The notes beneath the pieces were generated by a model. The model did not search any database and was not told the origin of the DNA. It worked only from the letters and a program-made list of their open reading frames with translations. Positions 1 to 51,105 of a DNA stretch of 64,000 nt are shown here, piece by piece. A program made the translations under genes and the position numbers. Source of the stretch: Nemertoderma westbladi (Eukaryota > Animalia > Xenacoelomorpha); assembly GCA_032718475.1 (NCBI GenBank), contig JAUCBJ010004254.1, positions 1 to 64,000 on the forward strand, given 5' to 3'. How positions within the stretch are numbered: the stretch's first letter is position 1; every line of letters starts with the position of its first letter.

Positions 1-1300
1 CAGCTTCGGCCGCCTTTGCCTCTGCCGCTGCCGCTTTTGCCTCGGCCGCTGCCTCTGCCGCTGCCGCTTTTCTTTCAGCTTCGGCTACTTTCCTTTCCGC
101 TTCGGCAGCTGCTACTGCTGCTTTCTTTCTGTCTTCTATACGTTTTTTCTTGACTTGTTCTTCTTGGACTCGTGTGATGCGGAGTTGTTCATCAAATTTA
201 GCCTGGTTCGCAGCCCTCATTTCCACATCGATGGCATCCAACACAAGCTTGGTTCCTTCACTATTAGGGCTAAGTCCCTCTAACCTTCTCCTCAACTCGT
301 CATCACCTAAAAAACGTTGATAGTCTGACAGATAGATGTCAATGGCATCCCTCTTATGCGGTTTCTCTGCCGTCGCTTCACTTTCCACTTGGGAAAAGGT
401 AGCGTCTGTTGATTCTCCATGGGTTGATCGCTCCTCCAGCTGAGCTTTCCACTGAGCTGTTCCTTGAACCTGGAGACTCACCCGTTGAAACCAAGTCTTT
501 ACGGCAACTTGCAACGACGTGTCTTGTCTTCGTTTAGAAGCCTCCTCAAAGGCTGATAAGATTAGCCTGATCCGCAGAACTCTTTCTCTAACTTGATAAA
601 GCAGCTGTCCCTGCTCTTGAGGTCCTTGAGGTTGTTGAAACAGTTGTCTTTCTACTCGCTCCATAGAGCTGAAGAATCCCTGTGCGTATCCGGCTGCGGA
701 CCTCTTCCATACAGCTGGATTGATGGTTTCCTTGGCTACTCCCATCCGGTGTATGTCTTCCCAGGCAGCTTCTGATAAATCGAACGGGAGTCCGGGTCCG
801 GGGAAGTTCCATTGCGACTCGACAATAGACTTCAGTTCTTCACTCGTGTATCCCGCGTAACTATCTCTAGTTGACCGTTGACTTCTCGCCCAATCGATCT
901 GGTGTTCTTCCACCGCGGTCAATAACGCAGCGAGCACGGCTGCAGGAAGGATGAGAAGGGGATCTGTATAAACCGCATCCGTCATCTCTGCTCCGCGCTC
1001 GGGTGTCAGCTCTACAGTATCCTCACTACTGGAGCTGCTGGGCCGCTGAGGAATAAGTTCTTGACTAGCGGGTTGTTGCTGTTCCGCTGCTTGTTGGTCC
1101 CGCTTGACCTGAGCTCGGGTGCCTATGATAGACCTACGATGTTGGACTAGCCTAGGTTCTGTTATTACTACTGGAGGGATGACCTTCCTCACAGTGGGAG
1201 GTGAACTGAACTTACGACCAGACGGTTGTACGTCTCGATCTGAGTTGCAGATAGTTACATCTAATAAACTGTCTGACAGGTTCTGCTTAGTATCAGACAT
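1..1300 (-). CDS. gag: BEL/Pao Gag N-terminal region (open frame running off the window)
   Basis: ATG at 1300 (MSDTKQNLSDSLLD...). It stays in frame across the point where copy 2 is frameshifted (QGPQEQGQLLYQVRER) and ends in Ala/Glu/Lys repeats (AEAAAEAKAAAAEAK). Confidence 0.8.
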   Translation of the reverse strand, partial: MSDTKQNLSDSLLDVTICNSDRDVQPSGRKFSSPPTVRKVIPPVVITEPRLVQHRRSIIGTRAQVKRDQQAAEQQQPASQELIPQRPSSSSSEDTVELTPERGAEMTDAVYTDPLLILPAAVLAALLTAVEEHQIDWARSQRSTRDSYAGYTSEELKSIVESQWNFPGPGLPFDLSEAAWEDIHRMGVAKETINPAVWKRSAAGYAQGFFSSMERVERQLFQQPQGPQEQGQLLYQVRERVLRIRLILSAFEEASKRRQDTSLQVAVKTWFQRVSLQVQGTAQWKAQLEERSTHGESTDATFSQVESEATAEKPHKRDAIDIYLSDYQRFLGDDELRRRLEGLSPNSEGTKLVLDAIDVEMRAANQAKFDEQLRITRVQEEQVKKKRIEDRKKAAVAAAEAERKVAEAERKAAAAEAAAEAKAAAAEAKAAEA

Positions 1301-2625
1301 GACTAGGTATGTACAGTTGAATGCCTACTGCTATATTACAGTCTAAGCAAGTCTAGTAACTCAGTATTAACTGCTAGCCTAGTAATTAATTACCGTTACT
1401 GCTACTCAGTGTAGCGTGATATATATATAATATATTAGAATACCGGTATACTTATAGTATATATAACTATATAAGTATTATTACAGACTAGGTTTATCAC
1501 AGAATACTGGTATAATTTTAGCACAAATATATATAAATATATAATAGGCCTATCGGGAATACCGGTATACAGTTTACAGTTTGTAGTATATATAATTCTG
1601 GACTAGAATTAATTATAAGTACCGGTATAATTTCAGCCTAGATTTATAGAAATAAAGATAATAGGCCTATCGTAAATACCGGTATATCAATTATTTCAAA
1701 TAATTGAATTTCTGTTACTTTAGGGTTACTTTGTTACTTTACTTACTTTTATTACCGTTATTTGAGCAGTAGTCCAACTGATATGGAGACCTAATTGTTA
1801 TATGGTAGGCCTACTATTTATAAATCGTTAGATTTGATTTATAATATATATATACCCGTTTTAATGGGTTTTGTCAATGTTGAAATAAATGTTATTATTT
1901 CTGGGGAGTAATCACTACACAAAGCGGTGCGCTTTCAGTGAAGTGTTACTTATAGGACACTAAAACAAATAATGCTAATTTACCTAAGTTACTTAATACT
2001 ACAAATTACGTACAATTCGGGTGAGATTACAATCTCTAAATAAACACAAATTTACAAAAACACAAATACGAATTTCTAGGGTAATTTTACAAGAAGTCTA
2101 CAAACCAGCCTAACAAAGGGTTAGAAAACCGGTTATTACAACGGACAGGGTACTACGGTATTTGAAATAATAAGTAGTAGTAAATACACTGCGTTGTCCA
2201 GATAGGAAAATACCACCGCCTGACGACCTATAGCCGTATCGCTATAGGTTCTACGTTATGTATCACGGAGTGTTCCTACCTAGAAGTTAATAGAGCTAAT
2301 CGAATGTGCCTATCAACCACTTTACAACACAGATATAATGTCTACAATAATTACTTCGGAAAGTACTGTACACTAAACCCTAAATTAGGTACGAGTACTT
2401 GTACAACAGATAATCAGTAGTTAAATATACTTGAACAGCTAAAAGAACCACGGCATCTGCTGGAGTGACCGATGCACAAAATCACCAGTCTTTACCTACG
2501 CCGAGCAGCCCGTGTAGTACCGGGGTTAATTTAACTATAGCGGTATGTATAACAAACACAATTACTGTAGGAACAAACTTGGGGAATGAATGTTGCGGAT
2601 AATCGCATAAACTCTGAATAATAAA

Positions 2626-3190
2626 TATTACGCTACGCGTACAAACTACTCAAACAAAATACAGACCGAACACTGACAGACTACTATCAAGCCTAAACAA
2701 ACTACGGTATATGCAGACTCCGAAATGATTAGGGAGTATGCGCTCTAACCCAGTAGTGCGACTTATTCTTTAGTTGGGGGTTTACCTTACAGCGTTCGCT
2801 GCCCCTACTGCCTAACCGTACTTAATCGGACAGATGATCTACACACGCGGCAATCCGCTCAGACCTAATAACAGCCAGACAACTATCCAGCCTACAAATT
2901 ATCTAAATAAAATTATACGCTACCCGTACAGACTTACACAAACAAAGTACAGACTAAACGATGGCAGACTACTCTCAAGCCTAAATAAACTACAGGACAT
3001 GCAGACTCCGAAATGATTAGGGAGTATGCGCTCTAACCCAGTAGTGCGACTTATTCTTTAGTTGGGGGTTTACCTTACAGCGTTCGCTGCCCCTACTTCC
3101 TAATCGTACTTAATCGGACAAGTGATCTACACACACTGCAATCCGTTCGGACTTAACAGCAATCAGACAACAGCTCAGCCTACAAATTGT
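2626..3190 (-). repeat. Tandem duplication (~285-bp unit x2) in the BEL leader
   Basis: The block gactccgaaatgattagggagtatgcgctctaacccagtagtgcgac occurs at ~2715 and ~3004; a homologous duplication lies at 36480-37040. Confidence 0.85.
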
Positions 3191-3523
3191 CTGTACAATC
3201 TGATCAGGCTTACACGCCTTCTGTTCAATACTGGCCTACAAACAAATAAAACTTGACAGAAATAAGTAAAATCTCAATAAAAAACCAGGGCGGCCGTTCC
3301 CTGATTAAATACTAAGACCTACCGGTATACAACAATCAAATCGAATAATACTAATGTACTTATACGGGAAGTACCGGTTAGGACAGTTAGGCCTACGGAC
3401 CTACAGAAGTACCGGTTCTAGCGGTTGGGCCTACTGACCTACAGATGTACCGATTCAGGTTTACCGGTTGACCAGTACTTTCAACTTTATTGCTTACTGC
3501 AACAAAGAAGCTATATCCTTTAA

Positions 3524-4706
3524 TGTTCGCGCTTTCAGACCTTTGGCAGTTTAACCCGCCAAATTAGGATGTCTTCTAGATATTAAATCGCTTTTTAGCC
3601 TATGACAAATATTTGATTCACTACACTAGTCGAAACCAATCTGTGCGCGATCATTCACCCGCTGGATATTCCCGGGAGATTGGGTTCAACGGTTTAATTT
3701 TATTGCTATGTAAGCCTAATGTATTATTCGACTGACAGTATTATATAATCTCTGACAATATTATTCACCTTCGGGGAATATTAACAGTTCCTTTAGGACG
3801 TGGCGCTTTATCTATATAAACAGAGTTATGACTTAAACTACTCACAACGATATGGCTTAATTATAATTCACATATATGGCGCATTCTTTAGGAATTGCTT
3901 CTTTAACAGACTCACTCATACACAATGCTGCACAATACTGCACACTAATCTGCCAATCTTCACTGATTTTAGTCACATATAAAAGGAACACAGACTGACT
4001 CATGTAGGGTCTACCAAATAACATTAGATTCACTTCAAACCACTTTAACATAAGTCACAATCGTTATTGGTAACCTTTCTCTCTTACCTTCGGTATATCA
4101 AGAATATTGGGTGTCGGGGGTTATTTCTCGTTATTCCAATATAATAATTCATCAACAAATATAATGAATAACCGACAACAAATAGCAGTATGCAGTATTC
4201 ACAGATCAATCGTGCCAGTTTGTTTTGAGTTAAGACAATCAGTCAGTCATCAGTTAAAGGATATATGTCCTTATGATTAAACCTACTAGTGTTGAGCTAA
4301 AAAGCAGAAAGCACAAAACACTAAAAAGCCGTTCTTTCGTGGCTTTGAAAAACTCGTGACTACTGCTCTATACGAGTATACCAACCACTCTTATTCCACG
4401 AAGCTCCCGTTCAACACAGAGAAAGAGCAGTGAGATAGGAAATTTTCAGTTCAGTACTCTGTGATAGGTCAAAATCAAGGCTAACTCAAATTCTATTGGG
4501 AGATACAAAAACAAGGCTATGACGCAACCTCCCTAGGCTTGTTGGCCGATTAAACAGAGCCCAGATGCCTGCGTACAGCAAATCAGCCAATAAGCTGGTA
4601 ACTTGCACTATTTTTAACTGTAGATCACTTTGAGAGTATTCTTAGCGACTGGGGGGGAACTGGCCAACAAGGCAAACGAATCAGTTATCCCACAAAAGCT
4701 TTTACA
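3524..4706 (-). repeat. 5' LTR of BEL/Pao copy 1 (1183 bp)
   Basis: Same termini (TGTTCGCGCTTTCAGACC ... AAAAGCTTTTACA) as the LTRs at 26002-27160 and 37382-38539. Confidence 0.88.
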
Positions 4707-5458
4707 AATGCAGAAGTAGTAGAAATCCGGCAACTACAGTCACAGACACAGACTTTGCGGATGACATCGCCCTGCTCTCTAATACGCTAGCAGATGCACA
4801 GCTTCTACTAAATAAAGTGGAGAGGGCTGCTAAGGAGGTTGGATTGCATATAAATGCTACAAACACCGAATTTATGACCTTTAATGTTGATGGAAACTTG
4901 ACAACCATTGATAATAATCAACTAAGGAAGGTCGATGACTTCCAGTACCTTGGATCATGGATAGAGAGTAGCAAAAAGGACATAGAAGTTAGGAAAGCAA
5001 AGGCTTGGGTAGCTCTATCAAAAATTGATACCATCTGGAAATCAGATCTCTCCAGGCACCTGAAGACTAAGTTCTTTCGAGCCACAGTGGAAAGTGTATT
5101 TTTATATGGGGGTGAGACCTGGACACTGACTAAATCACTTGAACAACAATTGATGGTTGCTACACAATACTACTAAGGGCAGCCCTAAACATCAGCTGGA
5201 GACAACACATGACAAACGCCGAGCTTTATGGTACAATACCACCTGTATCAACCATCCTCAGGTCATACCAGATCTACTTCTCTGGCAACCAACTCATGGA
5301 AAGCGTAGTCGTGGACGACCGGCCATAACATATATAGATCAACTTGAAAGGGATACTGAACTTGGGAGAAACGAAATTGCGACAACTATGGAGAATTGGG
5401 AAGCCTGTAAGGATCTCATTTCCACTGTCCGAGTTCGCTCGACCTAGTAGTAGTAGTA
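4707..5458 (+). mobile_element. RTE-clade LINE 3' fragment with (TAG)n tail
   Basis: DTDFADDIALL, FQYLGSWI and GKRSRGRP motifs; near-identical to 49975-50774; ends TAGTAGTAGTAGTA; has a small internal deletion near 5260. Confidence 0.9.
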
Positions 5459-5589
5459 CATTGGAGCTGAATATTGAGATGATATGTTGGCTTAATGAAA
5501 CATTTGTGCCACTACCATGCGAGCCACAATTTGCATACTGCAATGCCGCTTGAATTAAGAATGTTGTGCCGGCTTGTTGACATAATTGC

Positions 5590-15719: not shown

Positions 15720-16481
15720 GAACGTGTATAATACGTCCAAGAAAGAGCGCTCTTACAAAACCGATTGTGCGTGATGTAAAGTGCAGCACAAGCAGCATAT
15801 AAAGTAGAGTTATTAGGGAAAGAGAGAAATGCCATATAATAATCCGCGCTAATATAATAATAGCATGTTAAATCTCAATATTACTGAGTTTATATTTTAT
15901 CATATAATTCACATAAATCTAGCTGTTTAGGTACCAGAAATGTAGTTGTTATTGTTGATAAACCTTATTAAAATAAATGCAATCCGTCTCCAGAGTTGTA
16001 CTGAAAGGGAACGTAACAATGGTGGCAGTAACTACATGCTAGCTAACGTTTATTACGACCAGATGTGACTCATTCGAACAATAATGGTCGCTTGTATATA
16101 TCGATCTAATTTCTACACAATTTTACTCTCGTCGTTGGTAGAATGGGAACAGTCTGTGAGTCGTAAACCAAATAATTTGTTTATTGCTTTGCGGTTCTCA
16201 TAAATGTATTGTCATATTTATTTATAACTCTTTCTGAGATTTAACATTTCTAATGACTCATCATGACAATGCACATCAATTATTTTATTTTTTGAACCAT
16301 TTTATTCAGAAATTTAAATGTTATTCATAATTAATATTTTACCACACCACTTCAATATTAAAATTGATATTTAATACAATTATTCGTATTTTCTCTATTG
16401 TAATAAATATAATACAATAATATATTAAATTACAGTAAACTTGATTACATCTGCAGAATGTATCTCTAATAATACGTGAGT

Positions 16482-19400
16482 TAAGTTCAATAGGTTGACT
16501 TCAATAGGTTGAGTACAGTAGGTTGAGTTCAGTAGGTTGAGTCCAAGAGGTTGAGTTCAATTGGGTTCATTGGGTTGAGTTCAATAGGTTGAGTTCAATA
16601 GGTTGAGTTCAATAGGTTGAGTTCAATAGGTTGAGTTCATTGGGTTGAGTTCATTGGGTTGAGTTCAAAAGGTTGAGTTCAATAGGTTGAGTTCATTGGG
16701 TTGAGTTCAAAAGGTTGAGTTCAATAGGTTGAGTACATTGGGTTGAGTTCAATAGGTTGAGTTCAATAGGTTGAGTTCAATAGGTTGAGTTCATTGGGTT
16801 GAGTTCAAAATGTTGAGTTCTTGGGGTTGAGTTCATTGGGTTGAGTTCAATAGGTTGAGTTCAATAGGTTGAGTTCATTGGGTTGAGTTCATTGGGTTGA
16901 GTTCAATAGGTTGAGTTCATTGGGTTGAGTTCATTGGGTTGAGTTCAAAAGGTTGACTTCATGGGGTTGAGTTCATTGGGTTGAGTTCAATAGGTTGAGT
17001 TCATTGGGTTGAGTTCAATAGGTTGAGTTCATTGGGTTGAGTTCAAAAGGTTGACTTCATGGGGTTGAGTTCATTGGGTTGAGTTCAATAGGTTGAGTTC
17101 ATTGGGTTGAGTTCAATAGGTTGAGTTCAATAGGTTGAGTTCATTGGGTTGAGTTCAAAATGTTGAGTTCTTGGGGTTGAGTTCATTGGGTTGAGTTCAA
17201 TAGGTTGAGTTCAATAGGTTGAGTTCATTGGGTTGAGTTCATTGGGTTGAGTTCAATAGGTTGAGTTCAATAGGTTGAGTTCAATAGGTTGAGTTCAATA
17301 GGTTGAGTTCAATAGGTTGAGTTCATTGGGTTGAGTTCATTGGGTTGAGTTCAAAAGGTTGACTTCATGGGGTTGAGTTCATTGGGTTTAGTTCAATAGG
17401 TTGAGTTCAATAGGTTGAGTTCATTGGGTTGAGTTCAATAGGTTGAGTTCAATAGGTTGAGTTCATTGGGTTGAGTTCAAAATGTTGACTTCATGGGGTT
17501 GAGTTCAATAGGTTGACTTCATGGGGTTGAGTTCATTGGGTTGAGTTCATTAGGTTGAGTTCATTGGGTTGAGTTCAAAAGGTTGACTTCATGGGGTTGA
17601 GTTCATTGGGTTGAGTTCAATAGGTTGAGTTCATTGGGTTGAGTTCAATAGGTTGAGTTCAATAGGTTGAGTTCATTGGGTTGAGTTCAAAATGTTGAGT
17701 TCTTGGGGTTGAGTTCATTGGGTTGAGTTCAATAGGTTGAGTTCAATAGGTTGAGTTCATTGGGTTGAGTTCATTGGGTTGAGTTCAATAGGTTGAGTTC
17801 AATAGGTTGAGTTCAATAGGTTGAGTTCAATAGGTTGAGTTCAATAGGTTGAGTTCATTGGGTTGAGTTCATTGGGTTGAGTTCAAAAGGTTGACTTCAT
17901 GGGGTTGAGTTCATTGGGTTTAGTTCAATAGGTTGAGTTCAATAGGTTGAGTTCATTGGGTTGAGTTCAATAGGTTGAGTTCAATAGGTTGAGTTCATTG
18001 GGTTGAGTTCAAAATGTTGAGTTCTTGGGGTTGTGTTCATTGGGTTGAGTTCAATAGGTTGAGTTCAATAGGTTGAGTTCATTGGGTTGAGTTCAAAATG
18101 TTGAGTTCTTGGGGTTGAGTTCATTGGGTTGAGTTCAATAGGTTGAGTTCAATAGGTTGAGTTCATTGGGTTGAGTTCATTGGGTTGAGTTCAATAGGTT
18201 GAGTTCAATAGGTTGAGTTCAATAGGTTGAGTTCAATAGGTTGAGTTCAATAGGTTGAGTTCATTGGGTTGAGTTCATTGGGTTGAGTTCAAAAGGTTGA
18301 CTTCATGGGGTTGAGTTCATTGGGTTTAGTTCAATAGGTTGAGTTCAATAGGTTGAGTTCATTGGGTTGAGTTCAATAGGTTGAGTTCAATAGGTTGAGT
18401 TCATTGGGTTGAGTTCAAAATGTTGAGTTCTTGGGGTTGAGTTCATTGGGTTGAGTTCAATAGGTTGAGTTCAATAGGTTGAGTTCATTGGGTTGAGTTC
18501 ATTGGGTTGAGTTCAATAGGTTGAGTTCATTGGATTGAGTTCAAAAGGTTGAGTTCATTGGGTTGAGTTCATTGGGTTGAGTTCATTGGGTTGAGTTCAA
18601 AAGGTTGACTTCATGGGGTTGAGTTCAATAGGTTGACTTCATGGGGTTGAGTTCATGGGGTTGAGTTCAATAGGTTGAGTTCATTGGGTTGAGTTCAAAA
18701 GGTTGACTTCATGGGGTTGAGTTCATTGGGTTGAGTTCAATAGGTTGAGTTCATTGGGTTGAGTTCAATAGGTTGAGTTCAATAGGTTGAGTTCATTGGG
18801 TTGAGTTCAAAATGTTTAGTTCTTGGGGTTGAGTTCATTGGGTTGAGTTCAATAGGTTGAGTTCAATAGGTTGAGTTCATTGGGTTGAGTTCATTGGGTT
18901 GAGTTCAATAGGTTGAGTTCAATAGGTTGAGTTCAATAGGTTGAGTTCAATAGGTTGAGTTCATTGGGTTGAGTTCATTGGGTTGAGTTCAAAAGGTTGA
19001 CTTCATGGGGTTGAGTTCATTGGGTTGAGTTCAATAGGTTGAGTTCAATAGGTTGAGTTCATTGGGTTGAGTTCAATAGGTTGAGTTCAATAGGTTGAGT
19101 TCATTGGGTTGAGTTCAAAATGTTGAGTTCTTGGGGTTGAGTTCATTGGGTTGAGTTCAATAGGTTGAGTTCAATAGGTTGAGTTCATTGGGTTGAGTTC
19201 ATTGGGTTGAGTTCAATAGGTTGAGTTCATTGGGTTGAGTTCAAAAGGTTGAGTTCATTGGGTTGAGTTCATTGGGTTGAGTTCAATAGGTTGAGTTCAA
19301 TAGGTTGAGTCCAATAGGTTGAGTTCATTGGGTTGAGTTCATTGGGTTGAGTTCAAAAGGTTGAGTTCATTGGGTTGAGTTCAATAGGGTTGAAATCAGT

Positions 19401-19550
19401 GAGTTGAAATCAGTGTGTTGAGATCAATAGGTTGAGTTCAATGGGTTGAGTTCTGTGGATTGAGTTCAATGGGTTTTAATCAGTGAGTGGAAATCAGTTG
19501 ATTGAATTCAACGGGTTGAGTTCATTGGGTTGAAATCAGTGGTTTGAGTT
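16482..19550 (+). repeat. 14-bp satellite GGTTGAGTTC(AATA/ATTG/AAAA/ATGG/TTGG), ~3 kb, roughly 215-220 units
   Basis: Direct reading: strict 14-bp phase, degenerate at both edges. Confidence 0.97.
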
Positions 19551-26001: not shown

Positions 26002-27160
26002 TGTTCGCGCTTTCAGACCTTTAGCAGTTTAACCTGCCAAATTTAGATGTCTTCTAGATTATAAATCGACTTTAGCCTATGACGAGTATTTGATACACTA
26101 CATTAGCCGAAGCCAGTCTATGCGCGACCATTCACCCGCTGGATATACCCGGGAGACTGGATTCGGAAGCTTTGACCTTATTGCGGTGTAGGCCTACTGT
26201 ATTATTCGACTGATCGTTAATATATAATTTCTGACAAATATTATTCACTTTCGGGAAATATTAACAGTTCCTTTAGGACGTGGCGCTCTAAATATGTAAA
26301 CAGAGTTATGACTTATACTAGACACAACGGGATGGCTATGGATTCACGTATAAAGCGCATTCTTTAGGAGATGCTTTGTTATCAGTCACAATCATGCACA
26401 CTACCGCACAATGCTGCACACCGATCTGCCGACCTTCACTAATTTTAGTCACATATAAAGAGAACAACAACCGACTCATGTAGTGCCTATGAAATAGCAT
26501 TAGATTCACTCCAAAACCACTTTAATGTAAGTCGCAATTGTTATATGTAACCGGTCTCTCTAACCTTCAGTATATCAAGAAGATTGGGGTTTCTGATTAT
26601 TGATCGATATTATCCAAATATAACAATATTCCATCAACTGATATAATTAATAACCGACAGTAAATAGCAGTAAAAATGCGGTGTTTGTAGTTGACAATAT
26701 GATTAGGTGAGATAACAGATATACGTTTCTATGACCAAAGCCTACTAATGTTTGGCTAAAGCCTGAAAACACAGAGGTTCCAAAGCCGGTCTTCTGGCTG
26801 TGGACAAAATACACATACTGACTCAATTCATGAGTTTCTGTATACAACCTCCAACACAGAGTCAAAAAACGCTCTGATTGGTCGACCGAACAAAGAGAGA
26901 ACAAAGAACAAATAAATGTTACACGTGGACATATCAGCTGTTAGATGTCGTCATGGTAACTACACTGTGTCAAGAGGATTTTAGCGTATTGCGACATAAA
27001 ATTGCTAGTTATGTCCGCTAAAGTACACATACAGAAGAAATGGCTTTTTATGTCCACTAAAACACCGGTACAGTAAGGAAACGGCTTTTTATGTCCGTTA
27101 AACCAACTACAGAGTACTTTGCGGGGAAAATAACCAGCTAATTCCGCAAAAGCTTTTACA
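26002..27160 (-). repeat. 3' LTR of BEL/Pao copy 2
   Basis: Direct repeat of 37382-38539 with about 7 differences by eye. Confidence 0.95.
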
Positions 27161-27237
27161 CCGCTCCCAGAAAATGGGATTTAATTCTATAAAATATAAA
27201 AATCACAGTTTCTAAAATATAAAAATACTCTAAACAG

Positions 27238-28601
27238 TTAGTTTTCCTTGCGCGGACGGCGTTTACGCAGTTTTTTGAGGCTAGCAAGAGTCCTTTTCTC
27301 TTTGGGGCGAGCCACTTTACTAGGAGGGCTGTAACTCCTGGGTGAAGGGTGCAATACAATTGCATCAGAAGGTTTAGGGTTACGGTCGATGTCTCGTCCA
27401 TTTCGATATGCTTCTCCTCGAGCTGATTTTCCTCTGCTTATCGTTGGATGCGTTCGTCCAAAACTCTTGCAGAGAATAGGGTTGTCCAAGTTCGATATCT
27501 TCTTAGAGATTCTGAATTTCCTGATCGAACTGAGATAAAGTTAATTCGTTTACCGCTTGGACTTGCTACTGCAATTTACGTTTCTCTAAACAATTGTAGG
27601 TTCATTTTCTGATCTTTTGACGAATAGTGTCCATATCTGTAGTTTCGTATAACTCTTTCCTCCGCCTCGGTGACAGGTTGTATCGGGTTAAACAGGGACG
27701 ATGGTACGGTTGAATGGCGATATTAGATGTCCACGTCCCAATCCGACTAAGTAAGATGGGTGAATATTTAAGGGAGCCCACAACCGGAGTGCCACCGACT
27801 AACTGTTCGGATAACACTAGATCTTTGAACAGTGAGTACAGTTCGGGAGGATCCGTGATACTATTAGGATCAAGAGTCTGAGGTCTAACTAGGGAATGAG
27901 GAGGTCTGACCGAGTATTCTGGAACTCTGATCATAGGTTTATTTAAGGATCGTTTGAATCAAACGAGCGTAGGTGATACATCGAACAAGTTTCGCTCGAA
28001 ACTTCCGTAAATATAGCGAGTAAAACCGTGTTCAAAGCAACGTCTCCACGGATGTTTATGTCTTTCCGTTTGTTGGTTGGGTCTTGGGCATTCATCGCAA
28101 TAATACCAAAGACGCACGTCTTGTAGGGGAAACGCGAGTGATATTTATTCGGTTTTACAACGTTTCTCTCAAGAACTCCAAATATACGTTGGAGTTACTG
28201 CGTTTATCCGGTTCTTTAACGTCTTCTCTTTTGAGTCGATTTCGAATAGAATTTTCGCATTCGATTTTCAGTTTATCGTTCCGAATCCACTGGGTAGGAT
28301 ACTCAAACAGTACCATTTCCCTTTCGGTGTCGACATCGTCCGTATCGTGTAAATCGATAGGATGACCAGTAGTTAAGAAGTCCATATGCGTACCATTACG
28401 ATGCGTATAGCGAGCAGTGAATTTTCAATAGTCCAATTCACGCGTAAGTTGCTCCTGGGACATCGGCGGTTCGATATAACGACCATCGTCCTCCGTAGTA
28501 GTCGGACTAGCGTCGCTGCGTATCAATCTATCAACAAACGCTTGTAAAGGTAGAGTATATCACTCCCTGATACCAAGATCATCTTCTATCAACTCAGTCA
28601 T
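27238..28601 (-). pseudogene. Degenerate additional ORF in the 3' region of the BEL element (unknown product)
   Basis: Same-strand ORF pieces (28601-28155, ~28120-27602, 27489-27238) separated by isolated stops and frameshifts; C-x2-C-x16-C-x2-H motif; basic C-terminus. Confidence 0.5.
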
Positions 28602-30214
28602 ATCTGCTATATGAGTTTATCAATATTATAATGAGTTTATATTTAGGCTAGCGGGCGTCGCTGCCTACCCCTCTCGGCCCCCGGACAGCGCAAGATCCTC
28701 AGCGCTGGTGTACTTTCGCCGATGTGCCTATCGCCAACGTCGTAGCTGCACAACGACCACAACAACCAGCGCGAGTCACTCCACCGTCCGTCCCAAAGGC
28801 TTAGATTTACTTCAGGTTCTTACTGGAGAGTTAGGGCTACTTTCACAATTGCGACTCGCTACTGTAAACACACTTTAGTAGTGACATTCACCTATAAACG
28901 CACAAATTCCACACAACTGTCACAAATCGCACACATTCGGGCCATTTGTCCGTTAGTCAGTGCCTTTCAGAATGCCACGTTATTATTGGGTATCCTGGGA
29001 TACTAGCAGTGTGCTATTTATTCCTTATGCTATTCAATGGGCAAGCTTTATTGTTCTTTTAACTCACTTCTAATTCTAGCGTGGTTGTTGCCATGGTGAC
29101 ATTATGGAAAGCTAGCGGTAGAATTAGGGTAATTCCCATGCATACAGATCTGGGATGCTATTTAATAGTAATTCTTTAATTGTCAATATCCCCTTTATAC
29201 ATGATTTTATGAATTTTATCGGCTATTGACTATATATTGGAGATTCTCGCACACTGATACACTTAATAGAGTGAATCTCCGCTCCCATGATCTATTAATT
29301 AATGGAATTTTGGGAATGTTATAAATTGTATAAAAATGACAATTTATCAAATTCATTAAAATATGAATTTAAATTTATTCCCGTAAATTTTATTATTTAA
29401 TATTAAATAGACACAATTTTATTCCAGAACATGTCTGGGGACTAGGATCCTTGATTCTAGGAAATTGGTCTTTTTAAGAATATCGGTAAGTGCTACGATA
29501 TCTTAATAGACTATAATTTTAAAGGATCTAAAATTTGACAGATTTTGTAAATATTAATAATTAATATTTAGGATGGGCACCAGTTTTATTCCAGAACTGG
29601 GGACGTTAACCACTGATTCTAGAATTTTGTCTTTCAAGTATATCGGTGGGTGCCGCGATATCTTAATCGACTAGAATTACAGATGGTCAAAGGGTTTAAC
29701 AGATTTATTTTTGCGTTTTACGCTACTGTTAAAGGGACATCACGCTACTATATGTATTATTTAATATACGGTATGAGAGCAATATCGCAAGAAGCAATGT
29801 CAGTGAGAAGAGGCAAGTCGTTTCCAAGGTCTACCCAGAGCTTGGTTTAGCCGAGACACGAGGATCTGAACTTTGCATTCCTAATACTCTACTTACCAAT
29901 AATACTTGAATATAGTAGGAGCTTTATTGTACTTTAATAAGTACGGACATTTCATCTTACTGTAGTCACATATTTATAATGTAATACGGGCAGTAAGGAA
30001 AGAGAAAAAGAATTATTTCTCGCCGTCGCACGAAATATATAATATATAAGTAATTAAGTAATTAACACTAATATATATTGCACTAATCTACTAAATAATC
30101 TCTAAAATAACATTCTACTAAATAAAATTAAAGAAAAATAATAATACATACATAAATATAAAATAATAAATACAAATATAAAATAATATAGTCACACACC
30201 CACACTAGACGCTG

Positions 30215-33200
30215 TTACGTTGGGGAGTCCCTAGATGTTTGTTGGATTAGGGAGGTGGTCGTGGGAAGAGTATCTTGCCTTCCATAGTTTCCGGACAGTT
30301 CTCGGTCTCGTTCCAGTAAACATAAACGACCAACTGGGCGATTGAGCTGCTGTGTCTCGAAGACAATTCCAGGTTTCCTCTTCGTCCTGGAATAGTGACG
30401 ATAGAAACATCGCTTCAGATACACGACGGCCTTACAAAGCCGATTCCAGGATCTATAGTGGTCCATCGCTCCCGGCAGGAGAGGTGAGAGTCCCTGCGAG
30501 ACGTCTGGTGTTCCAGATCTCCAGTCTCTCTCTCTGATCTCCACAACAGATCGGTTCGCGGTGGGGGAGTTTAGATCCACAGCGTCGTCCCTGGCAATGT
30601 GTAGTACAGACAGATCTATCATGGGTTTAAATAACCTTGATTTACTCGTCCGGGTTTTAGGTTTGACTTTCTCCGCTCCCTTGGCTTGTCTAATCTCAGC
30701 CGTGGTAAGATGGGGAGGCCATTCATCTCCTTTACTTAGGAAGTCGGGTCCACCTAACCAGTCTGGAGTATCTGTCAGTTCTTGAGGAGTTGCTCCTCTG
30801 GAAGCGATGTCGGCTAGATTAATCGTCTCGGGGCAATGTCTCCATTGATCTACATTGGAGTTAATATCGTCATTATCTGAGAAGCGCTTCATGCGCATTT
30901 TGGCCGATGAGTATTTGCACTCCAGGGTAATCTGTGTTGAATCTAGGTATATTAAGCTGCTGGGTGGAATCGTCCTCATCCCAGTTATAAGGTTCTACTT
31001 GGCTGGTAGCGAAGTTCTTTATCGCCACCATTTTTACTGACCTTATACTGTGTTCTCCTAGTTCATCCTGGGGGGTGGACAACGCACCTACATAATAATC
31101 TGCTATTACTGTAGATTTCCAAACCCGCATAATTCCTGACATGTTTAACTTAGTTCGGAACTTGGGTTGTCCAGCAAAGATGTCTTCGGCTAGTTCTTTG
31201 TCGATGAATGTTCCTGTGCTACCGGAGTCAAGGAGGGCGTTCACTATATAACTCCTTTTAGGTCCGTGGACCCTTAACTGCACTACGGGAAATTCTCGGA
31301 TTCCTACATTGGAAGTTGGTGCTTTCCAAGATGGTTGTCGGTCAGAAGTAGTTAGGGGAAGCTCGCTGTCGGTGTCCTTTTCATACGTAAGTGCTCGATA
31401 CACTGCGGTATTTATCAGGTAACAGGATTCGTTTTCGTCGGAGAATTCGTCCGTATAGAATCCTTCCATCTCAGAACTTTGGTCAGTGTCGTTCACATCA
31501 CTGAATTGGACATGTAGTTCGGACTCACTTACCTGACTCGGGCTGTTTCGTTCGAATTCAGTGTGCAACAAGATATGATGTTTTGCGCCGCACTTTGCAC
31601 ACCTTACGTCGGAGTAATAGGTTTGCCGTTGGTGTCCTCGTCTGAGGCAATTATAACACAACCGCTTATCCCACATGACTTCCCGTCTATCCTTTAATGA
31701 TTTCTTTAGGAATTCATCACACACATTCAAACGGTGGGTCCCGTCGCACAGCACACATTTTGGTTTGATGTTACTTACCTTACTCTGGGTAACGTTGTGC
31801 ACACTCATTCTTTCCTCGGGCTTTCTTACATGAATTCTCTTAGGAGACGTAGGAGGAGTTTTTCTTACCTGTTCTCTCCTGTCATGGGTTCGAGACCTAA
31901 ATTTACTTACGTCCTTAGGCGCTTTGTTGTCATAGTAAGATCTTTCAGTGTCTTTCCCGCTGTCTTCCTCTTGAGAAGCCTGGCTTTCGCCGTCGTCTGT
32001 ATAACACACTGGTATTACCTTTCTCCTAGAAACGGGTTTCTCACTTACCTTATTTTCCGGTGTCTTCTCCCTGGACTGCTTTAGGAGCTGTAATTTTCCC
32101 TCTCCATCTAAGAATGACATGAGATCAGCCATGGTTGGATCTCTTCGTTGTTGTTCCATCATATATAACACTTTCTTGTCCCAGCGTGTACCTACTCCAC
32201 CCTTTGGTAAAGTAGAGGCCACGGCTCCAATAACCATAGAACTCTGATATTCATGAGACTTACCTAGCCAATCTAATTGTCTACAGATTTCCTGAATCTC
32301 ATCGGAAAACTCTATAATCCCGCTGCTAATGAATTTTCGGGGCGCTACCAATTTTGCATACAAATACCTAGCTATGTTATTCCTATTACCATACCTGATG
32401 TTTAGGGTATCCAAACTTGTCTTAATTCTTCTGGATGTCCAATAAATTTTAACGCCATTAACTTGGGAGATCCTTCCAAGCACTCGATGAGGAATCTAAG
32501 TTTCTCTCCGTTAGATAGCACAGAGTTCTGTATGTTATCTTTGTAATATTCATTAAAAGGTAACCATTTCATCTCATCTCCGTTGAACTTGACGATCTCT
32601 CCCACCTTTACCGCTTGACGGGCTTCGGTTCTAGCCATTTGACGCGTAAAACTTTCTTGGGCCATCGTGTTATTTAATATCGAGTTATCAGTATATAAAT
32701 TTCTCGGATTATTATCAAGTCTATATGGAATATCATTGTCAACAGGTTTATAATTACCCTTAATAGGATTTACTATAGGAGTTTCCACTTCACTAGCAGT
32801 ATAGATGCGTGTAGGCTCCACACCTGGCGCATGAGATACTTCAGACCTAACAGGTTGACACACTGTTACCGGGGGTGGTGGTATACCTCTTTGGGTATTT
32901 ACTAATTTATCGCGTTCTAACGCGATACTTTGCTGCACTTCTTGTAACTCTAACCTACTTTCCCTTACTGTGCCCTTGAACTGCTGAACAGTCTCCTGCA
33001 TCTGCCCGAGCAGGAGATCCATCCCCCGCCGTCTCTCATCCACCCACTCGACCGCCGAAGCGGGAGCCGCCAACGTAGTAGCGGGTGGACGGGGGACAAC
33101 GGGCGACAAATCATTGATATTTCGCTCGGAGTCCAGAACAGGAACTGTCTCATGGGCTGTTCTGCTGGGCACAGGTAGCTTGGTGCTGTGCAAAGAGAAT

Positions 33201-35010
33201 TTAGAGGTAGGTTCTGGGAGAACAGGTGTCTCTATCACCGAAGGGGTGGCTTCGAGAACAGGCCTAATTATTTCAGGCTCATCTACTATAGTAGGGAGTC
33301 TTTCTATTTTAATTATTTGGTCTGTGGGTTCTGTACTACCTAAGTCCGTGCTAGCTAGTTGCCTTCTAACAGCTGGGGGCAAATCAGGCAATTTCTGATG
33401 GTGGGACATTCTTCTACTTAGAACTTCGCCTACTTCGCCTACTTAGACAAGATCTATCTCCTCCGCCTTCAGGATCGGTGGTATCGCCTTCATCAGAGGA
33501 TGTAAATCCCTGTCGTTTGGGAGTAGATCGACTCATCATCTGCATTTGACTAGCTGTTAACTGTTTGTTTATGCAGTCTTGATTCTCTTGAATATTTTCC
33601 AACTCTAGTTGGGCGATCTCTTCAGACGCTCTCCGTTCTGCTTCTGCCGCTGCCACTGTCGCTTTTCTTTCCACTTCGGCTGCTTTTCTTTCCGCTTCTA
33701 CCTCTGCCGCTGCCGCTGCCGCTGCCGCTTTTCTTTCCGCTTCTGCCTCTGCCGCTGCCGCTGCTGCATTTCTTTCCACTTCTACCGCCTTTCTTTCCGC
33801 TTCTGCCGCTGCCACTGCTGCTGCCACTGCCGCTGTCTTTCTGTCTTCTATACATTTTTTCTAGACTTGTTCTTCTTGGACCCTAGCGATGCGGAGCCTT
33901 TCATCAAATTTAGCTTGGTTTGCAGCTATCATATCCGCATCGATTGCGTCCAACACAAGCTTGGCTCCTTCACTATTAGGGCTAAGTCCATCCAGCCTTC
34001 TCCTCAACTCTTCATCACCTACAAAGCGTTGATAGTCTGACAGATAGATGTCAATAGCATCCCTCTTATGCGGTTTCTCTGCTGTCGCTTCGCTTTCCAC
34101 TTGGGTAAAGGTAGCGTCTGTTGATTCTCCATGGATTGAGTGCTCAGCCAGCTGAGATTTCCACTGGGCAGTTCCTTGAACTTGGAGACTCACTCGCTGA
34201 AACCAAGTCTTTACGGCAACTTGCAACGACGTGTCTTGTCTTCTTTTAGAAGCCTCCTCAAAGGCCGATAAGATTAGTCTGATTCGTAGAATTCTTTCTC
34301 TAACTTGATAAAGCAGCTCCCTGCTCTTGAGGTCCTTGGGGTTGTCGAAATAGTTGTTCCTTTAATCGCTCCATAGAGCTGAAGAATCCCTGTACGTATC
34401 CTGCTGCTGACCTCTTCCACACAGCTGGATCGCTGGTTTCTTTTGTCACTCCCATCCTGTGTATGTCTTCCCAGGCAGCTTCCGATAAATCAAACGGGAG
34501 TCCGGGTCCGGGGAAGTTCCATTGCGACTCGACAATAGACTTCAGTTCTTCCCTCATGTATCCCGCATAACTATCCTTAGTCGATCGCTTACTTCTCGCC
34601 CAATCAATCTGGTGTTCCTCCACCGCAATCAATACCCTAGTGAGTACGGCTGCAGGAAGGATGAGAAGGGGATCCGAATAAACCGCATCTGCCATCTTTG
34701 CTCCGCGCTCGGGTGTCAGCTCTACAGTATCCGCACTACTGGAGCTGTCGGGTTGCTGAGAAATAAGTTCTCGGCTCGAGTGTTGCTGCTGTTCCGCTGC
34801 TTCTTGGTCCCGCTTGACCTGAGCTCGAGTGCCTATGATAGACCTACTGTGTTGGACTAGCCTAGGGTCTGATACTACTACTGGAGGGATGATCTTTCTT
34901 ACAGTAGGAGGTGAGTTGAACTTTGGTCTCACACGTTCCACACTCCTGTCTGGGTCACAGATGGTTGTATCTAGGAGACTGTCTGACAGGTTTTGCTTTG
35001 TGTCAGACAT
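30215..35010 (-). pseudogene. gag-pol: BEL/Pao gag-protease plus RNase H tail, disrupted
   Basis: DUF1759-like KFNGDEMKWLPF...EKLRFLIECLEG; three knuckles CVLCDGTH..C / CYNC...GH / CAKC...HH.LLH; protease ALLDSGS; then a jump to WRHCP...NLADIASRG...WLGGPDFL. Lesions near 34320, 33861, 33414 and 32410. Confidence 0.9.
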
Positions 35011-37381
35011 GTTTGTTTGTACAGTTGAATGCCTACTGCTATATTACAGTTAAAGCAAGTCTAGTAATTCAGTATCAACTGTTAGCCTAGTAATTAATTA
35101 CCGATACTGCTACTCAGTGTAGCGTGATATATATATATATAATATATTAGAATACCAGTATGCTTATAGTATATATATAAGTATTATTACAGACTAGATT
35201 TGTCACAGAATACCGGTATGTAATTTCAGCGCAAATATATATAAATATATAATAGGCCTATCGTGAATACCGGTATACAGCTTACACTTATAGTATATAT
35301 AAGTATAATTATTACAAACTAGATTTGTCACAGAATACCGGTATATAATTTCAGCACAAATATATATAAATATATAACAGGCCTATCGTGAATACCGGTA
35401 TACAGCTTACACCTAATATATATAAGTATAATTATGGACTAGAATTAATTACAGAATACCAGTATAATTTCAGCCTAAATTTATTGAAATAAATATAATA
35501 AGCCTATTGTAAATACCGGTATGTCAATTATTTTAAAATAATTGAATTTCTGAATTTTAGGGGTTACTTGGTTACTTTACCTTACCTTATTACCGTTATT
35601 TAAGCAGTAGTCCAACTGATATTAAGACCTAATTGATGTATGACAGGCCTACTATTTTATAAATCGGTTTGAGTTGATTTATAATATATATACCCCTATA
35701 ATGGGTTTTGTCAATATTTGAAATAAATGTTATTATTTCTGGGAAGGAGTCACTACACAGAAGCTGTGCGCTCTCAGTGAAGTGCTACTTGTTGGACACT
35801 AAAACAAATAATTCTAATTTACCTAACTTACTTAATACTACAAATTACGTACAATTCAGGGTGAGATTACAATCTCTAAATAAACACAAAAATTACACGT
35901 ACGAATTTTTAGGGTAATTTAACAAGAAGTCTACAAACCAGCCTAACAAAGGGTTAGAAAATCTGGTTATTACAACGGACAGGGTACTACGGTATTTGAA
36001 AATAATAAAGCAGTAGTAAATATACTGCGTTGTCCAGATAGGAAAAATACCACCGTCTGATGACTTATAGCCGTATCGCTATAAGTACTACGTTATGTAT
36101 CACGGAGTGTTCCTACCTAGAAGTTAATTACCGCGGTCTACCAGAACCAACGTGCCTATTAACCACTTTACAACACAGATATACTGCCTACACACTAATT
36201 ACCTTCGGAAAGTATTGTACACTAAACCCTAAATTAGGTACAAGTACTTATATAACAAATAACTAGCAGTTAGAAATACTTGTACAGCTAAAAGAACTAC
36301 GGTATCTGCTGGAGTGACCGGGGCACAAAAATCACCAGTCTTTACCTACGCCACGCAGCCCTGATGTAGTACCAGGGTTAATTTAACTATAACGGTATGT
36401 ACAACAACCACAATTACTGTAGGAATTAACTTGGGGATTTGAATGTTGCGGATAATCGCATAAGCTCTGAATAATAAATATTACGCTACGCATACAGACT
36501 ACTCAAATAAAATACAGACCAAACGCTGGCAGACTACTATCAAGCCTAAACAAACTACAGTATATGCAGACTCCGAAATGGTTAGTTAGTATGCGTTCTA
36601 ACCGAGTAGTACGACTTATTCTTTCAAGGGGATTTACCTCACAGCACTGGAAGCCCCTACGTTCCTAACTAGTACTTTATCGGACATACACTCTACACAC
36701 ACCGCAATCTCTTCAGCAGCCAGACAACAATCCAGCCTACAAATTATCTAAATAAGAAATATTACGCTACCCGTACGGACTACACATACAAAATACAGAC
36801 CAAACGCTGGCAGACTACTATCAAGCCTAAACAAACTACAGTATATGCAGACTCCGAAATGGTTAGTTAGTATGCGTTCTAACCGAGTAGTACGACTTAT
36901 ACTTTCGAGGGGATTTACCTCACAGCACTGGAAGCCCCTACGTTCCTAACTGGTACTTTATCGGACATACACTCTACACACACTGCAATCTCTTCAGACT
37001 TAACAACAGTCAGACAACAGTCCAGCCTACAAATTATCTGTACAATCTGAGCAGGCTTACACGCCTTCTGCTCAATATTGGCCTACAAATAAATAAAACT
37101 GACAGAAATAAGTAAAATCCCAATAAAAACCAGGCGTCCCTGATTACTTATTAAGACCTACCGGTATATAATTATCAAAATCGAATAATACTGCTGTACC
37201 TGTACTGCTGTAAGTACCGGTCCGGGTGGTTAGGTAGTTAGGCCTACTGGGTACCGGTTGACCGGTACTTCAGCTTTATTGCCTACTGCAATACAGAAGC
37301 AATAACTGTTACTGTTCTTACCAGAACAATATTAAACTGTATTTATTGCCTACACTGCAATCAGAAGTTCATATCTGTTAT

Positions 37382-38539
37382 TGTTCGCGCTTTCAGACCT
37401 TTAGCAGTTTAACCTGCCAAATTTAGATGTCTTCTAGATTATAAATCGACTTTAGCCTATGACGAGTATTTGATACACTACATTAGCCGAAGCCAGTCTA
37501 TGCGCGACCATTCACCCGCTGGATATACCCGGGAGACTGGATTTGGAAGCTTTGACCTTATTGCGGTGTAGGCCTACTGTATTATTCGACTGATCGTTAA
37601 TATATAATTTCTGACAAATATTATTCACTTTCGGGAAATATTAACAGTTCCTTTAGGACGTGGCGCTCTAAATATGTAAACAGAGTTATGTCTTACACTA
37701 GACACAACGGGATGGCTATGGATTCACGTATAAAGCGCATTCTTTAGGAGATGCTTTGTTATCAGTCACAATCATGCACACTACCGCACAATGCTGCACA
37801 CCGATTTGCCGACCTTCACTAATTTTAGTCACATATAAAGAGAACAACAACCGACTCATGTAGTGCCTATGAAATAGCATTAGATTCACTCCAAACCACT
37901 TTAATGTAAGTCGCAATTGTTATATGTAACCGGTCTCTCTAACCTTCAGTATATCAAGAAGATTGGGGTTTCTGATTATTGATCGATATTATCCAAATAT
38001 AACAATATTCCATCAACTGATATAATTAATAACCGACAGTAAATAGCAGTAAAAATGCGGTGTTTGTAGTTGACAATATGATTAGGTGAGATAACAGATA
38101 TACGTTTCTATGACCAAAGCCTACTAATGTTTGGCTAAAGCCTGAAAACACAGAGGTTCCAAAGCCGGTCTTCTGGCTGTGGACAAAATACACATACTGA
38201 CTCAATTCATGAGTTTCTGTATACAACCTCCAACACAGAGTTAAAAAACGCTCTGATTGGTCGACCGAACAAAGAGAGAACAAAGAACAAAGAAATGTTA
38301 CACGTGGACATATCAGCTGTTAGATGTCGTCATGGTAACTACACTGTGTCAAGAGGATTTTAGCGTATTGCGACATAAAATTGCTAGTTATGTCCGCTAA
38401 AGTACACATACAGAAGAAATGGCTTTTTATGTCCACTAAAACACCGGTACAGTAAGGAAACGGCTTTTTATGTCCGTTAAACCAACTACAGAGTACTTTG
38501 CGGGGAAAATAACCAGCTAATTCCGCAAAAGCTTTTACA
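37382..38539 (-). repeat. 5' LTR of BEL/Pao copy 2
   Basis: TG...CA termini, followed by TSD AAATT. Confidence 0.95.
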
Positions 38540-38802
38540 AAATTGGTGCTACAAAAAAAATGTAAAACATAAAACATGTAAATTGGTGCTAAATAATTTT
38601 TGTTAGGTGTGAAATCATCTAATTTGTGGTGGTATTCAATTAGTGGCGGTTTATAAATATGGGTCTGTTACAACGTATTTTTGCTATTTTTTTCAGGGGA
38701 AACATGATTCCCACACAAATTGGCCTCGATTATTGATGTTAATTATCATATACTGTAAATATATTTATTTATTTAATACACCACACTGTTGGCTTAATTA
38801 CT

Positions 38803-42571: not shown

Positions 42572-43261
42572 ATGGCTAACGACCTCAACGCGGTCGCCAT
42601 CAAACTGCCCCCGTTCTGGACGGAAAACCCATCCGTCTGGTTCGCGCAGGTGGAGGCCCAGTTCCAACTCCGGAGGATTGTCGACGACTCGACAAAGTAC
42701 TATCACGTCGTCGCCTCTCTCGACCAGCCGACCGCCGCTCGCCTCCTCGACACACTCACCGCTCCGCCTACAGATGGGAAGTACGAGGGACTGAAGGCGA
42801 GGCTCCTCGGGACTTTCGCCCTGAGTCGACGGGAGCGCGCTGCGAGACTCCTCCATATGCGTGGGCTGGGCGACCGCAAGCCGTCCGAACTCATGGACGA
42901 GATGCTGGGGCTCCTCACCGGGCACACGCCGTGTTTGCTGTTCGAGCAACTCTTCCTCGAACAGCTCCCCGAGGACATTCGGCTACAAATCTCCAACGAC
43001 TCTTTCGAGGACCCCCGCGCCCTGGCTGCGACCGCCGACGTTCTTTGGTTGGCCAAACGCCAGGGACAATCCCAACTGGCCGGCGTGAACAGGGGGATGA
43101 CAAACTCGCGTCGCCCCAGGGACTCCTCCACAAACTCCTCCGGCACTGCTCAGCCTGACACCAAAAGCGTGTGTTACTACCACGCTCGGTTCGGTAGCGC
43201 TGCCAAGCAGTGCAAGGCGCCGTGTTCCTTCCCGGGAAACGCCCCGACCAGCCGACGGTAG
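42572..43261 (+). CDS. gag: Gag (229 aa, CHCC motif)
   Basis: VAIKLPPFW...[27 protein letters not shown]...C..PC. Confidence 0.93.
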
Positions 43262-46200: not shown

Positions 46201-46473
46201 GACAGACTCAAACCGGCCCACCTCGCTATCGATGAACCCGTCATTGTGGCCATCCCACCGCGCCGTGGTCGACCACCTACAGTGACACCCCCGGACCTCC
46301 CTCCCCCCAGGCCCCAGTCTGCCAGTCCCTGCAATTCACCCGAACCACCGCAAACTACCATAGCAACTCGAAGTGGGCGGGCCATCCGGACTATTTTTAT
46401 TAATTCAGGTTCTGGGGGGAGCCATGTAGTGGCCATATATATATTAGGGGTCATCGAACCTGAATTGAACTAA
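43234..46473 (+). CDS. pol: Pol polyprotein (protease-RT-RNase H-integrase), entered by -1 frameshift
   Basis: [47 protein letters not shown]...[27 protein letters not shown]; slippery site GGGAAAC at 43234-43240. Confidence 0.95.
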
Positions 46474-50774: not shown

Positions 50775-51105
50775 TACCATGTATAATAATTTACCAATCA
50801 AGCAAACAGTCAGCCAAAGACGGTAGCGACCCTAAGGCTATACTCTTTCACAAGGCTATTACTATCCAAAGTTTTGCTAGTTTTTATTCAACTGGTCCTA
50901 TTTTATAATGTAATGATGTAATTTATTGACAAATGAGAAAGGGCCTCAAAGCTATAACCAACAGATTGTAAGCCTGACACTCAACCCAATCAAAATTATA
51001 TATGATACAGAAAATAATAAATATATAATAAAAGTATTATATAATGCAGTGCTAATATGTGCTTTGTGTATGTTATCTGTGATACAGAAATAAATAATGA
51101 TGGAT

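Follow-up and report, generated by a model that had tools for sequence, protein, structure and literature searches.

The two related BEL/Pao retrotransposons carried by the stretch of Nemertoderma westbladi DNA analysed here (64,000 nucleotides, hereafter the window) probably prime minus-strand DNA synthesis with RNA derived from their own LTR. The kind of mechanism is established in a Gypsy group and has been predicted in a Copia lineage, and what is likely to be new is its occurrence in BEL/Pao elements, which are described as tRNA-primed. The preliminary description had already proposed that this lineage self-primes. A duplex with compensated changes and the same 11-nt rule in elements from other hosts argue for this proposal, which is still a reading of sequences; the transcription start that it placed at ~4265 and ~38102, with a U3 of ~440 nt, is unsupported.

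Two related elements in the window

Both elements lie on the minus strand (Table 1) and, judged by their proteins, are BEL/Pao LTR retrotransposons. Copy 1 extends past the window edge. It is inserted beside or in a LINE-like sequence, positions 4707-5459 matching the RT-bearing region 49975-50777, and several contigs of run X5 stop at its LTR end (3524). Both ends of copy 2 are fixed by its 5-bp target-site duplication; TG...CA LTRs with such a short duplication are usual for BEL/Pao elements. No clear polypurine tract was found directly before the 3' LTR of copy 2 (27141-27170, minus strand).

Table 1. Features of the two BEL/Pao copies (positions in the window)
Feature	Position	Strand	Basis or remark
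Copy 1 5' LTR	3524..4706	-	1,183 nt; TG...ACA termini; aligns with the LTR of copy 2
Copy 2 5' LTR	37382..38539	-	1,158 nt
Copy 2 3' LTR	26002..27160	-	7 differences from 5' LTR; same primer site at 26723-26712
Copy 2 target-site duplication, AATTT, 5 bp	38540..38544	-	second copy at 26001-25997
Copy 1 candidate PBS	3512..3523	-	directly after LTR terminal CA; no TGG
Copy 2 candidate PBS	37370..37381	-	directly after LTR terminal CA; no TGG
Copy 1 predicted self-primer site	4254..4265	-	core of 11 nt at 4264-4254, with one further pair
Copy 2 predicted self-primer site	38091..38102	-	11-nt core 38101-38091; 12th pair G-U
T-rich tract ending in TTTAG, acceptor-like	4297..4318	-	32 nt upstream of primer site; copy 2 counterpart ends at 38135
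Predicted hairpin near LTR 3' end	3542..3563	-	two-copy consensus fold; one-sided changes only
Copy 1 gag, 5' part	2..1324	-	ORF open to window edge; 85.6% DNA identity to copy 2 33711-35402
Copy 2 gag, 5' part	32402..35043	-	broken, in several frames
Copy 2 capsid portion of gag with three zinc knuckles, and aspartic protease	30873..32495	-	540-aa frame; profile positions 252-656
Copy 2 RNase H C-terminal/tether fragment	30215..30994	-	profile positions 1237-1349; tblastn

The gene content agrees with this assignment. Gag has a DUF1759 region as well as three zinc knuckles, with a protease after them, as in BEL/Pao elements: the 540-aa frame of copy 2 matches DUF1759 with an E-value of 3e-4, below the curated cut-off, has a protease motif after the knuckles, and all 13 of its homologues that were scanned carry DUF1759 or the Pao peptidase family (PF05380). 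On a profile of ten BEL/Pao polyproteins, the matches of copy 2 are confined to positions 149-243, 252-656 and 1237-1349, with nothing at 656-1237 or beyond 1349; it lacks the RT, most of the RNase H and the integrase. Hence, the BEL/Pao order of RT and integrase is represented in copy 2 only by the C-terminal fragment of RNase H, and the pol of copy 1 lies outside the window. The Ty3/Gypsy chromovirus Pol that characterizes the Tf1/sushi group is not found in these elements, whose proteins are of the BEL/Pao type. They share with Belpaoviridae the order of Gag capsid and nucleocapsid, protease and RNase H, and their LTRs fall within the 0.2-1.2 kb range of this family (PMC8742986).

Copy 2 is a young, non-autonomous BEL/Pao deletion derivative. 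Therefore, it needed cis signals only, and the duplex described below is intact in it. By its protein matches, the family of the window is divergent: no protein proved to be closely related, the search giving three matches (E-values of 4e-8 to 1e-6) and none for the RNase H fragment, and no homologue fell below 1e-30 among cluster representatives. A search with the DNA pattern of the LTR end gave one chance match in viral contigs and none in metagenomes, and no BEL/Pao locus was found in viral contigs.

The leader between the PBS and gag is unusually long, ~2.2-2.3 kb (1325-3511 in copy 1 and 35044-37369 in copy 2, minus strand), and contains tandem repeats of 281-288 bp and 125 bp. Three kilobases separate the RNase H fragment of copy 2 from its 3' LTR (27161-30214, minus strand). 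This region has frames of 83-118 aa near the LTR, gave no Pfam match in the three frames scanned, and is possibly a decayed extra gene. The window also carries a TRPM-like gene (55295-58237, minus strand; an uninterrupted 980-aa frame with SLOG and TRPM2-like domains), a Pol of 1,091 aa whose RT, RNase H and integrase follow the Ty3/Gypsy order (43198-46473, plus strand), an array of 214 copies of a 14-bp unit (16480-19475) and a transposase frame matching PF13843 (6848-8065, minus strand). Taken by itself, the TRPM-like gene would weakly suggest a chordate host, the taxa being drawn from few records.

Complementarity between the PBS and the LTR

Neither 5' LTR is followed by a TGG-type PBS, as the preliminary description had claimed. 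tRNAs end in CCA, and the lack of TGG therefore means that the primer is not a mature tRNA 3' end; ARAGORN detected no tRNA gene in the window or in the loci from other hosts presented below. The self-complementarity noted in the same description was recovered base for base. In copy 1, the 12 nt at 3523-3512 are exactly reverse-complementary to 4265-4254, a site 441 nt into the LTR; in copy 2, the 11 nt at 37381-37371 are complementary to 38101-38091, which lies 438 nt into the LTR, and the twelfth pair is G-U. The two LTR sites, each ~440 nt into the LTR, can be aligned, and in both copies the paired bases begin right after the terminal CA of the LTR. The claimed covariation holds as well: the two duplexes differ at three of 11 pairs, each change being matched on the other side, within a comparison that rests on two copies.

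This PBS of about 11 nt that adjoins the LTR and is complementary to it is the Tf1-type arrangement. Each 11-mer is present in the window only at the LTR site or sites and, as its complement, at the PBS. The last 37 nt of the LTR before the PBS show just two differences between the copies, against three in 11 nt within the PBS. The cognate duplexes have predicted energies of -10.3 and -10.5 kcal/mol and the swapped pairs -2.3 and -4.0 kcal/mol, a loss of 6-8 kcal/mol.

Both sites are A+T-rich and the copies are related, so that complementarity arising by chance has to be considered. With LTRs generated by a Markov model, the probability of such a match at offset 0 is 2.0-2.5e-4 for copy 1 and 1.4-3.3e-3 for copy 2. 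In the real window, a match within the preceding 1,180 nt occurs at 191 of 125,560 positions for 12 nt and at 313 of 125,560 for 11 nt. Moreover, three PBS changes at those three positions with the right bases would be expected with a chance of ~2e-4, simple independence being assumed. These statistics, the three matched changes and the contrast seen in other hosts (six of seven elements against none of 15, see below) largely refute a chance origin, whose remaining probability is negligible.

Sequencing contigs aligned to 3300-4750 indicate a very diverse family at high depth (13,662 contigs of run X1 align). One diverged contig of run X5 has, among the differences listed, 21 at 4202-4250 and none at 4254-4265. 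No splice-type ends were found among the contig joints listed over 3300-4750.

BEL/Pao elements from other hosts

For comparison, 111 BEL/Pao loci were collected from two sources, metagenome contigs and contigs assigned to prokaryotic genome bins, all treated as animal DNA. Among them, 38 animal-type loci (L075-L112) lie in contigs of prokaryotic genome records, where they are probably host contamination. In 22 of the 111 loci, two LTR copies define where the LTR ends. A TGG tRNA site occurs within 8 nt of the LTR in 15 of these 22, none of which has a self-match to its LTR. The preliminary description had suggested that other BEL/Pao elements devoid of TGG be examined for PBS-LTR complementarity, and six of the seven such elements do match their LTR, across a predicted splice junction. 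In these six (L076, L086, L089, L092, L053 and L072), the LTR is followed, at 0-3 nt, by an 11-nt site with the reverse-complement sequence of a GT(A/G)AG..YAG junction inside that LTR, and the predicted LTR intron measures 76-697 nt. The seventh, L063, has neither a TGG site nor a self-match; its site resembles a mutated TGG site (cf. L060). Random 15-mers from the same loci pass the junction test in 5 of 11,000 cases. With offsets of 0-2, the junction count was 4 of 21; the offsets were widened to 0-3 after L053 and L032 had been seen, and L072 was added.

Eight further elements of the junction type have inferred LTR ends (L020, L040, L055, L077, L079, L082, L032 and L003), and predicted introns range from 38 to 1,022 nt over the whole set. 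When all 111 loci were first scanned blind, with no known LTR end, junction matches were not in excess (four, against four and one in controls). Within the junction-type clade, a stricter blind scan gave 9 of 41 loci (controls: one and zero), and a scan with donor motifs that were relaxed after L053 and L032 had been seen gave 14 of 46 (controls: two and zero). The TGG-rich clade yielded 3 of 31 in a blind scan (controls: two and three).

Of the 16 duplexes measured across elements, 13 end at 11 Watson-Crick pairs and the remaining three extend to 12, 13 and 15. At its second position the PBS has a T in 16 of 17 sites, both window copies included. In 8 of 12 junction-type elements (L072 being outside this count), the primer is followed at a distance of 0-49 nt by a poly(A)-type hexamer; no such hexamer is common to both window LTRs.

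Contiguous, that is unspliced, matches show no excess in the blind scans (1 of 46 against one and five in controls; 5 of 41 against five and eight). Therefore, the unspliced form seen in the window has a single candidate counterpart, L019. This locus carries a contiguous 11-nt self-match (L019:122-132 and 273-283), its LTR end is not fixed, and it is a close relative of L003, its tree neighbour, in which a junction-type site was read by eye. From this relationship, L019 may represent a possible case of intron loss. A spliced primer was also considered for the window copies and rejected, no AG being present in or directly before either 11-mer.

Trees were built from the 111 loci and the window without named BEL/Pao references, using one unbroken piece per locus and leaving out loci with less than 55% cover. 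In the RT-RNase H tree (78 rows), the 112-column fragment of the window groups with L032 and L051 (SH-aLRT 94), and this group lies inside a 49-row set (97) that also contains all five rows labelled at that stage as junction-type, together with two TGG rows. A junction match of 11 nt is present in L032 and one of 10 nt, read by eye, in L051. In the gag-protease tree (68 rows), the window row sits on a long branch with no resolved placement. That the window family is kin to the junction-type lineage is plausible.

These comparisons bear on two other explanations. According to the first, the PBS would bind a host tRNA fragment or another small RNA, the LTR match being secondary. Half-tRNA priming does occur in Copia lineages (available portion of PMC6317226), but between the sister families of the window three of the 11 bases are different, and the 17 sites are highly variable, each following its own LTR, which makes this explanation very improbable. 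According to the second, the duplex would be a conserved RNA structure acting in packaging, dimerisation, a translation switch or as a splicing sensor, and something else would prime. The long and highly structured R/U5 is in its favour, as is the ability of copy 2 to form an alternative helix, as a switch would. It is nevertheless improbable, although less so than the small-RNA explanation: the paired bases begin 0-3 nt from the LTR edge, which is the position of a primer, the self-match and the TGG site are mutually exclusive in 21 of 22 elements, and no other primer site is visible.

Predicted RNA structure

Folding of copy 1 from 4264 to 3380 gave pairing probabilities of 0.73-0.99 for 10 of the 11 primer bases. 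When copy 2 was folded alone from 38101, the probability of the PBS duplex was near 0, a competing helix with 37757-37763 being favoured; for a single sequence of 860 nt, a fold is unreliable whether it shows or lacks a given helix. The two-copy consensus fold contains the duplex, extended on the 5' side of the 12-mer by four pairs, of which two are compensated. It also pairs the LTR end with an LTR segment ~120 nt upstream, and the hairpin near the LTR end (Table 1) is predicted to be part of a conserved domain that would bring the LTR end beside the duplex. In the same fold, the sequence after the PBS forms a local hairpin and, in comparison with the Tf1 pretzel, does not pair with R/U5.

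Pairing 5' of the primer was also examined across elements. With 20-nt flanks, the Fisher test gave p = 0.16 for 18 sites, including the mis-set L051. Flanks of 8-12 nt, picked after the 20-nt result, gave p = 0.02-0.03 for 17 sites and 0.06-0.07 once three near kin were removed, and flanks of 15 nt gave 0.24. Rfam returned no match over 3200-4800.

Position of the putative primer in the transcript

Self-priming could take the strict Tf1 form, with transcription starting at 4264-4265 and 38101-38102 and the first 11 nt of the RNA as primer. Several features would fit such a start: the 13 duplexes that stop at exactly 11 Watson-Crick pairs do so as in Tf1, a T|A step is present at 4265/4264 and 38102/38101, and the copies are 48-62% identical upstream of 4302 against 72-90% from 4113 to 3517, a contrast like that between U3 and R. 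However, inter-copy identity falls also just downstream of the primer (44%). The relatives, in which only 3-8 primer bases precede the intron, would need first exons of 3-8 nt, and a TATA box 25-35 nt upstream is missing at all 16 primer sites. In each window copy the site is preceded, 32-33 nt upstream, by an acceptor-like tract, and in the consensus fold the duplex reaches four pairs further upstream, with compensated changes in two. The strict Tf1 form is thus rather unlikely. The TTTAG tract is the top-ranked acceptor-like site of the copy 1 LTR and the joint fourth-best (10/15 pyrimidines) of the copy 2 LTR; no conserved strong donor was found upstream of it in the window LTRs.

An internal primer is slightly likelier, with close to an even chance, since in most of the relatives found the primer is predicted to arise from the joining of sequences on both sides of an LTR intron. 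In self-priming, the transcript would fold and bring the LTR site into pairing with the PBS, and the RNase H of the element (supplied in trans for copy 2) would cut where the paired site ends on its 3' side, as in Tf1. The new 3'-OH would then be extended from the terminal A of the LTR, and DNA synthesis would start at the LTR edge. The primer would not need to be the capped 5' end of the RNA; the cut would only have to lie upstream of the poly(A) site. Strand transfer requires a poly(A) site downstream of the primer. Judging from the standard LTR cycle, plus-strand synthesis would copy the primer, and the PBS would be re-templated from the LTR at each cycle; hence, matched changes could arise without stepwise compensation. 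The window family is best explained, on the comparisons above, as an intron-free version with an unusually long stretch from the primer to the LTR end (709-730 nt).

Comparison with known self-priming elements

In Tf1, the RNA's initial 11 bases anneal to the PBS, and the RNase H cut falls between bases 11 and 12 (accessible part of PMC7175516). Self-priming is likewise described for Tf1/sushi and Tcn1 elements (Gypsy) and for Copia TAR elements in the available portion of PMC6317226. The window elements resemble Tf1/Tf2/Tj1, Tf1/sushi and Tcn1 in having a PBS that adjoins the LTR, an 11-nt complement in the LTR and no tRNA site (excerpts of PMC7175516, PMC4600332 and bioRxiv 10.1101/2022.12.06.519325). 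They differ from this group in several ways. They are BEL/Pao elements and not Ty3/Gypsy chromoviruses, their primer lies 709-730 nt from the LTR end, and they have relatives whose primer is split by a predicted intron. Whereas the Tf1 primer is the 5' end of the transcript, according to the partial texts cited, this is doubtful for the window elements. Furthermore, two additional duplexes flank the PBS of Tf1 in a three-duplex structure called the pretzel (bioRxiv 10.1101/2022.12.06.519325, in excerpt), and this structure is not clearly recovered in the modelled folds of the window copies.

In plant Ty1/Copia TAR elements (Houba, Osr-1), self-priming was predicted from a match of at least 10 nt between the sequence following the LTR and the LTR itself (PMC6317226, available portion); the window copies have such a match, in another superfamily and another host kingdom. 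The ICTV profile of Belpaoviridae describes tRNA-primed elements with an 18-nt PBS for tRNA-Arg or tRNA-Gly (PMC8742986), which both window copies lack. No report of BEL/Pao self-priming was found in the portions of the full-text literature covered, a scope outside which lie most subscription journals and Repbase reports (related works: PMC3601003, PMC12451622, PMC8220671, PMC6238403, PMC4558846, PMC6934838 and PMC5443660). The accessible parts of PMC554778 and PMC3118150 contain no mention of tRNA, PBS or priming; supplements of such surveys could hold PBS annotations.

Significance for BEL/Pao elements

Self-priming of the window elements yields predictions at single-base level, with an RNA end at 4253 and at 38090. 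If true, it would be present in all three LTR superfamilies and would account for BEL/Pao elements devoid of a PBS, which would escape tRNA-based annotation. An internal or spliced primer would, in addition, be a mechanism different from that of Tf1. More tentatively, and with a probability somewhat short of even, tRNA priming may have been replaced in a large, mostly marine BEL/Pao lineage by an internal self-primer, RNase H cutting inside the transcript. In most families of this lineage, the 11 pairing bases would come together only after the spliceosome has removed the LTR intron, which would gate reverse transcription, and the window family would represent the intron-free state.
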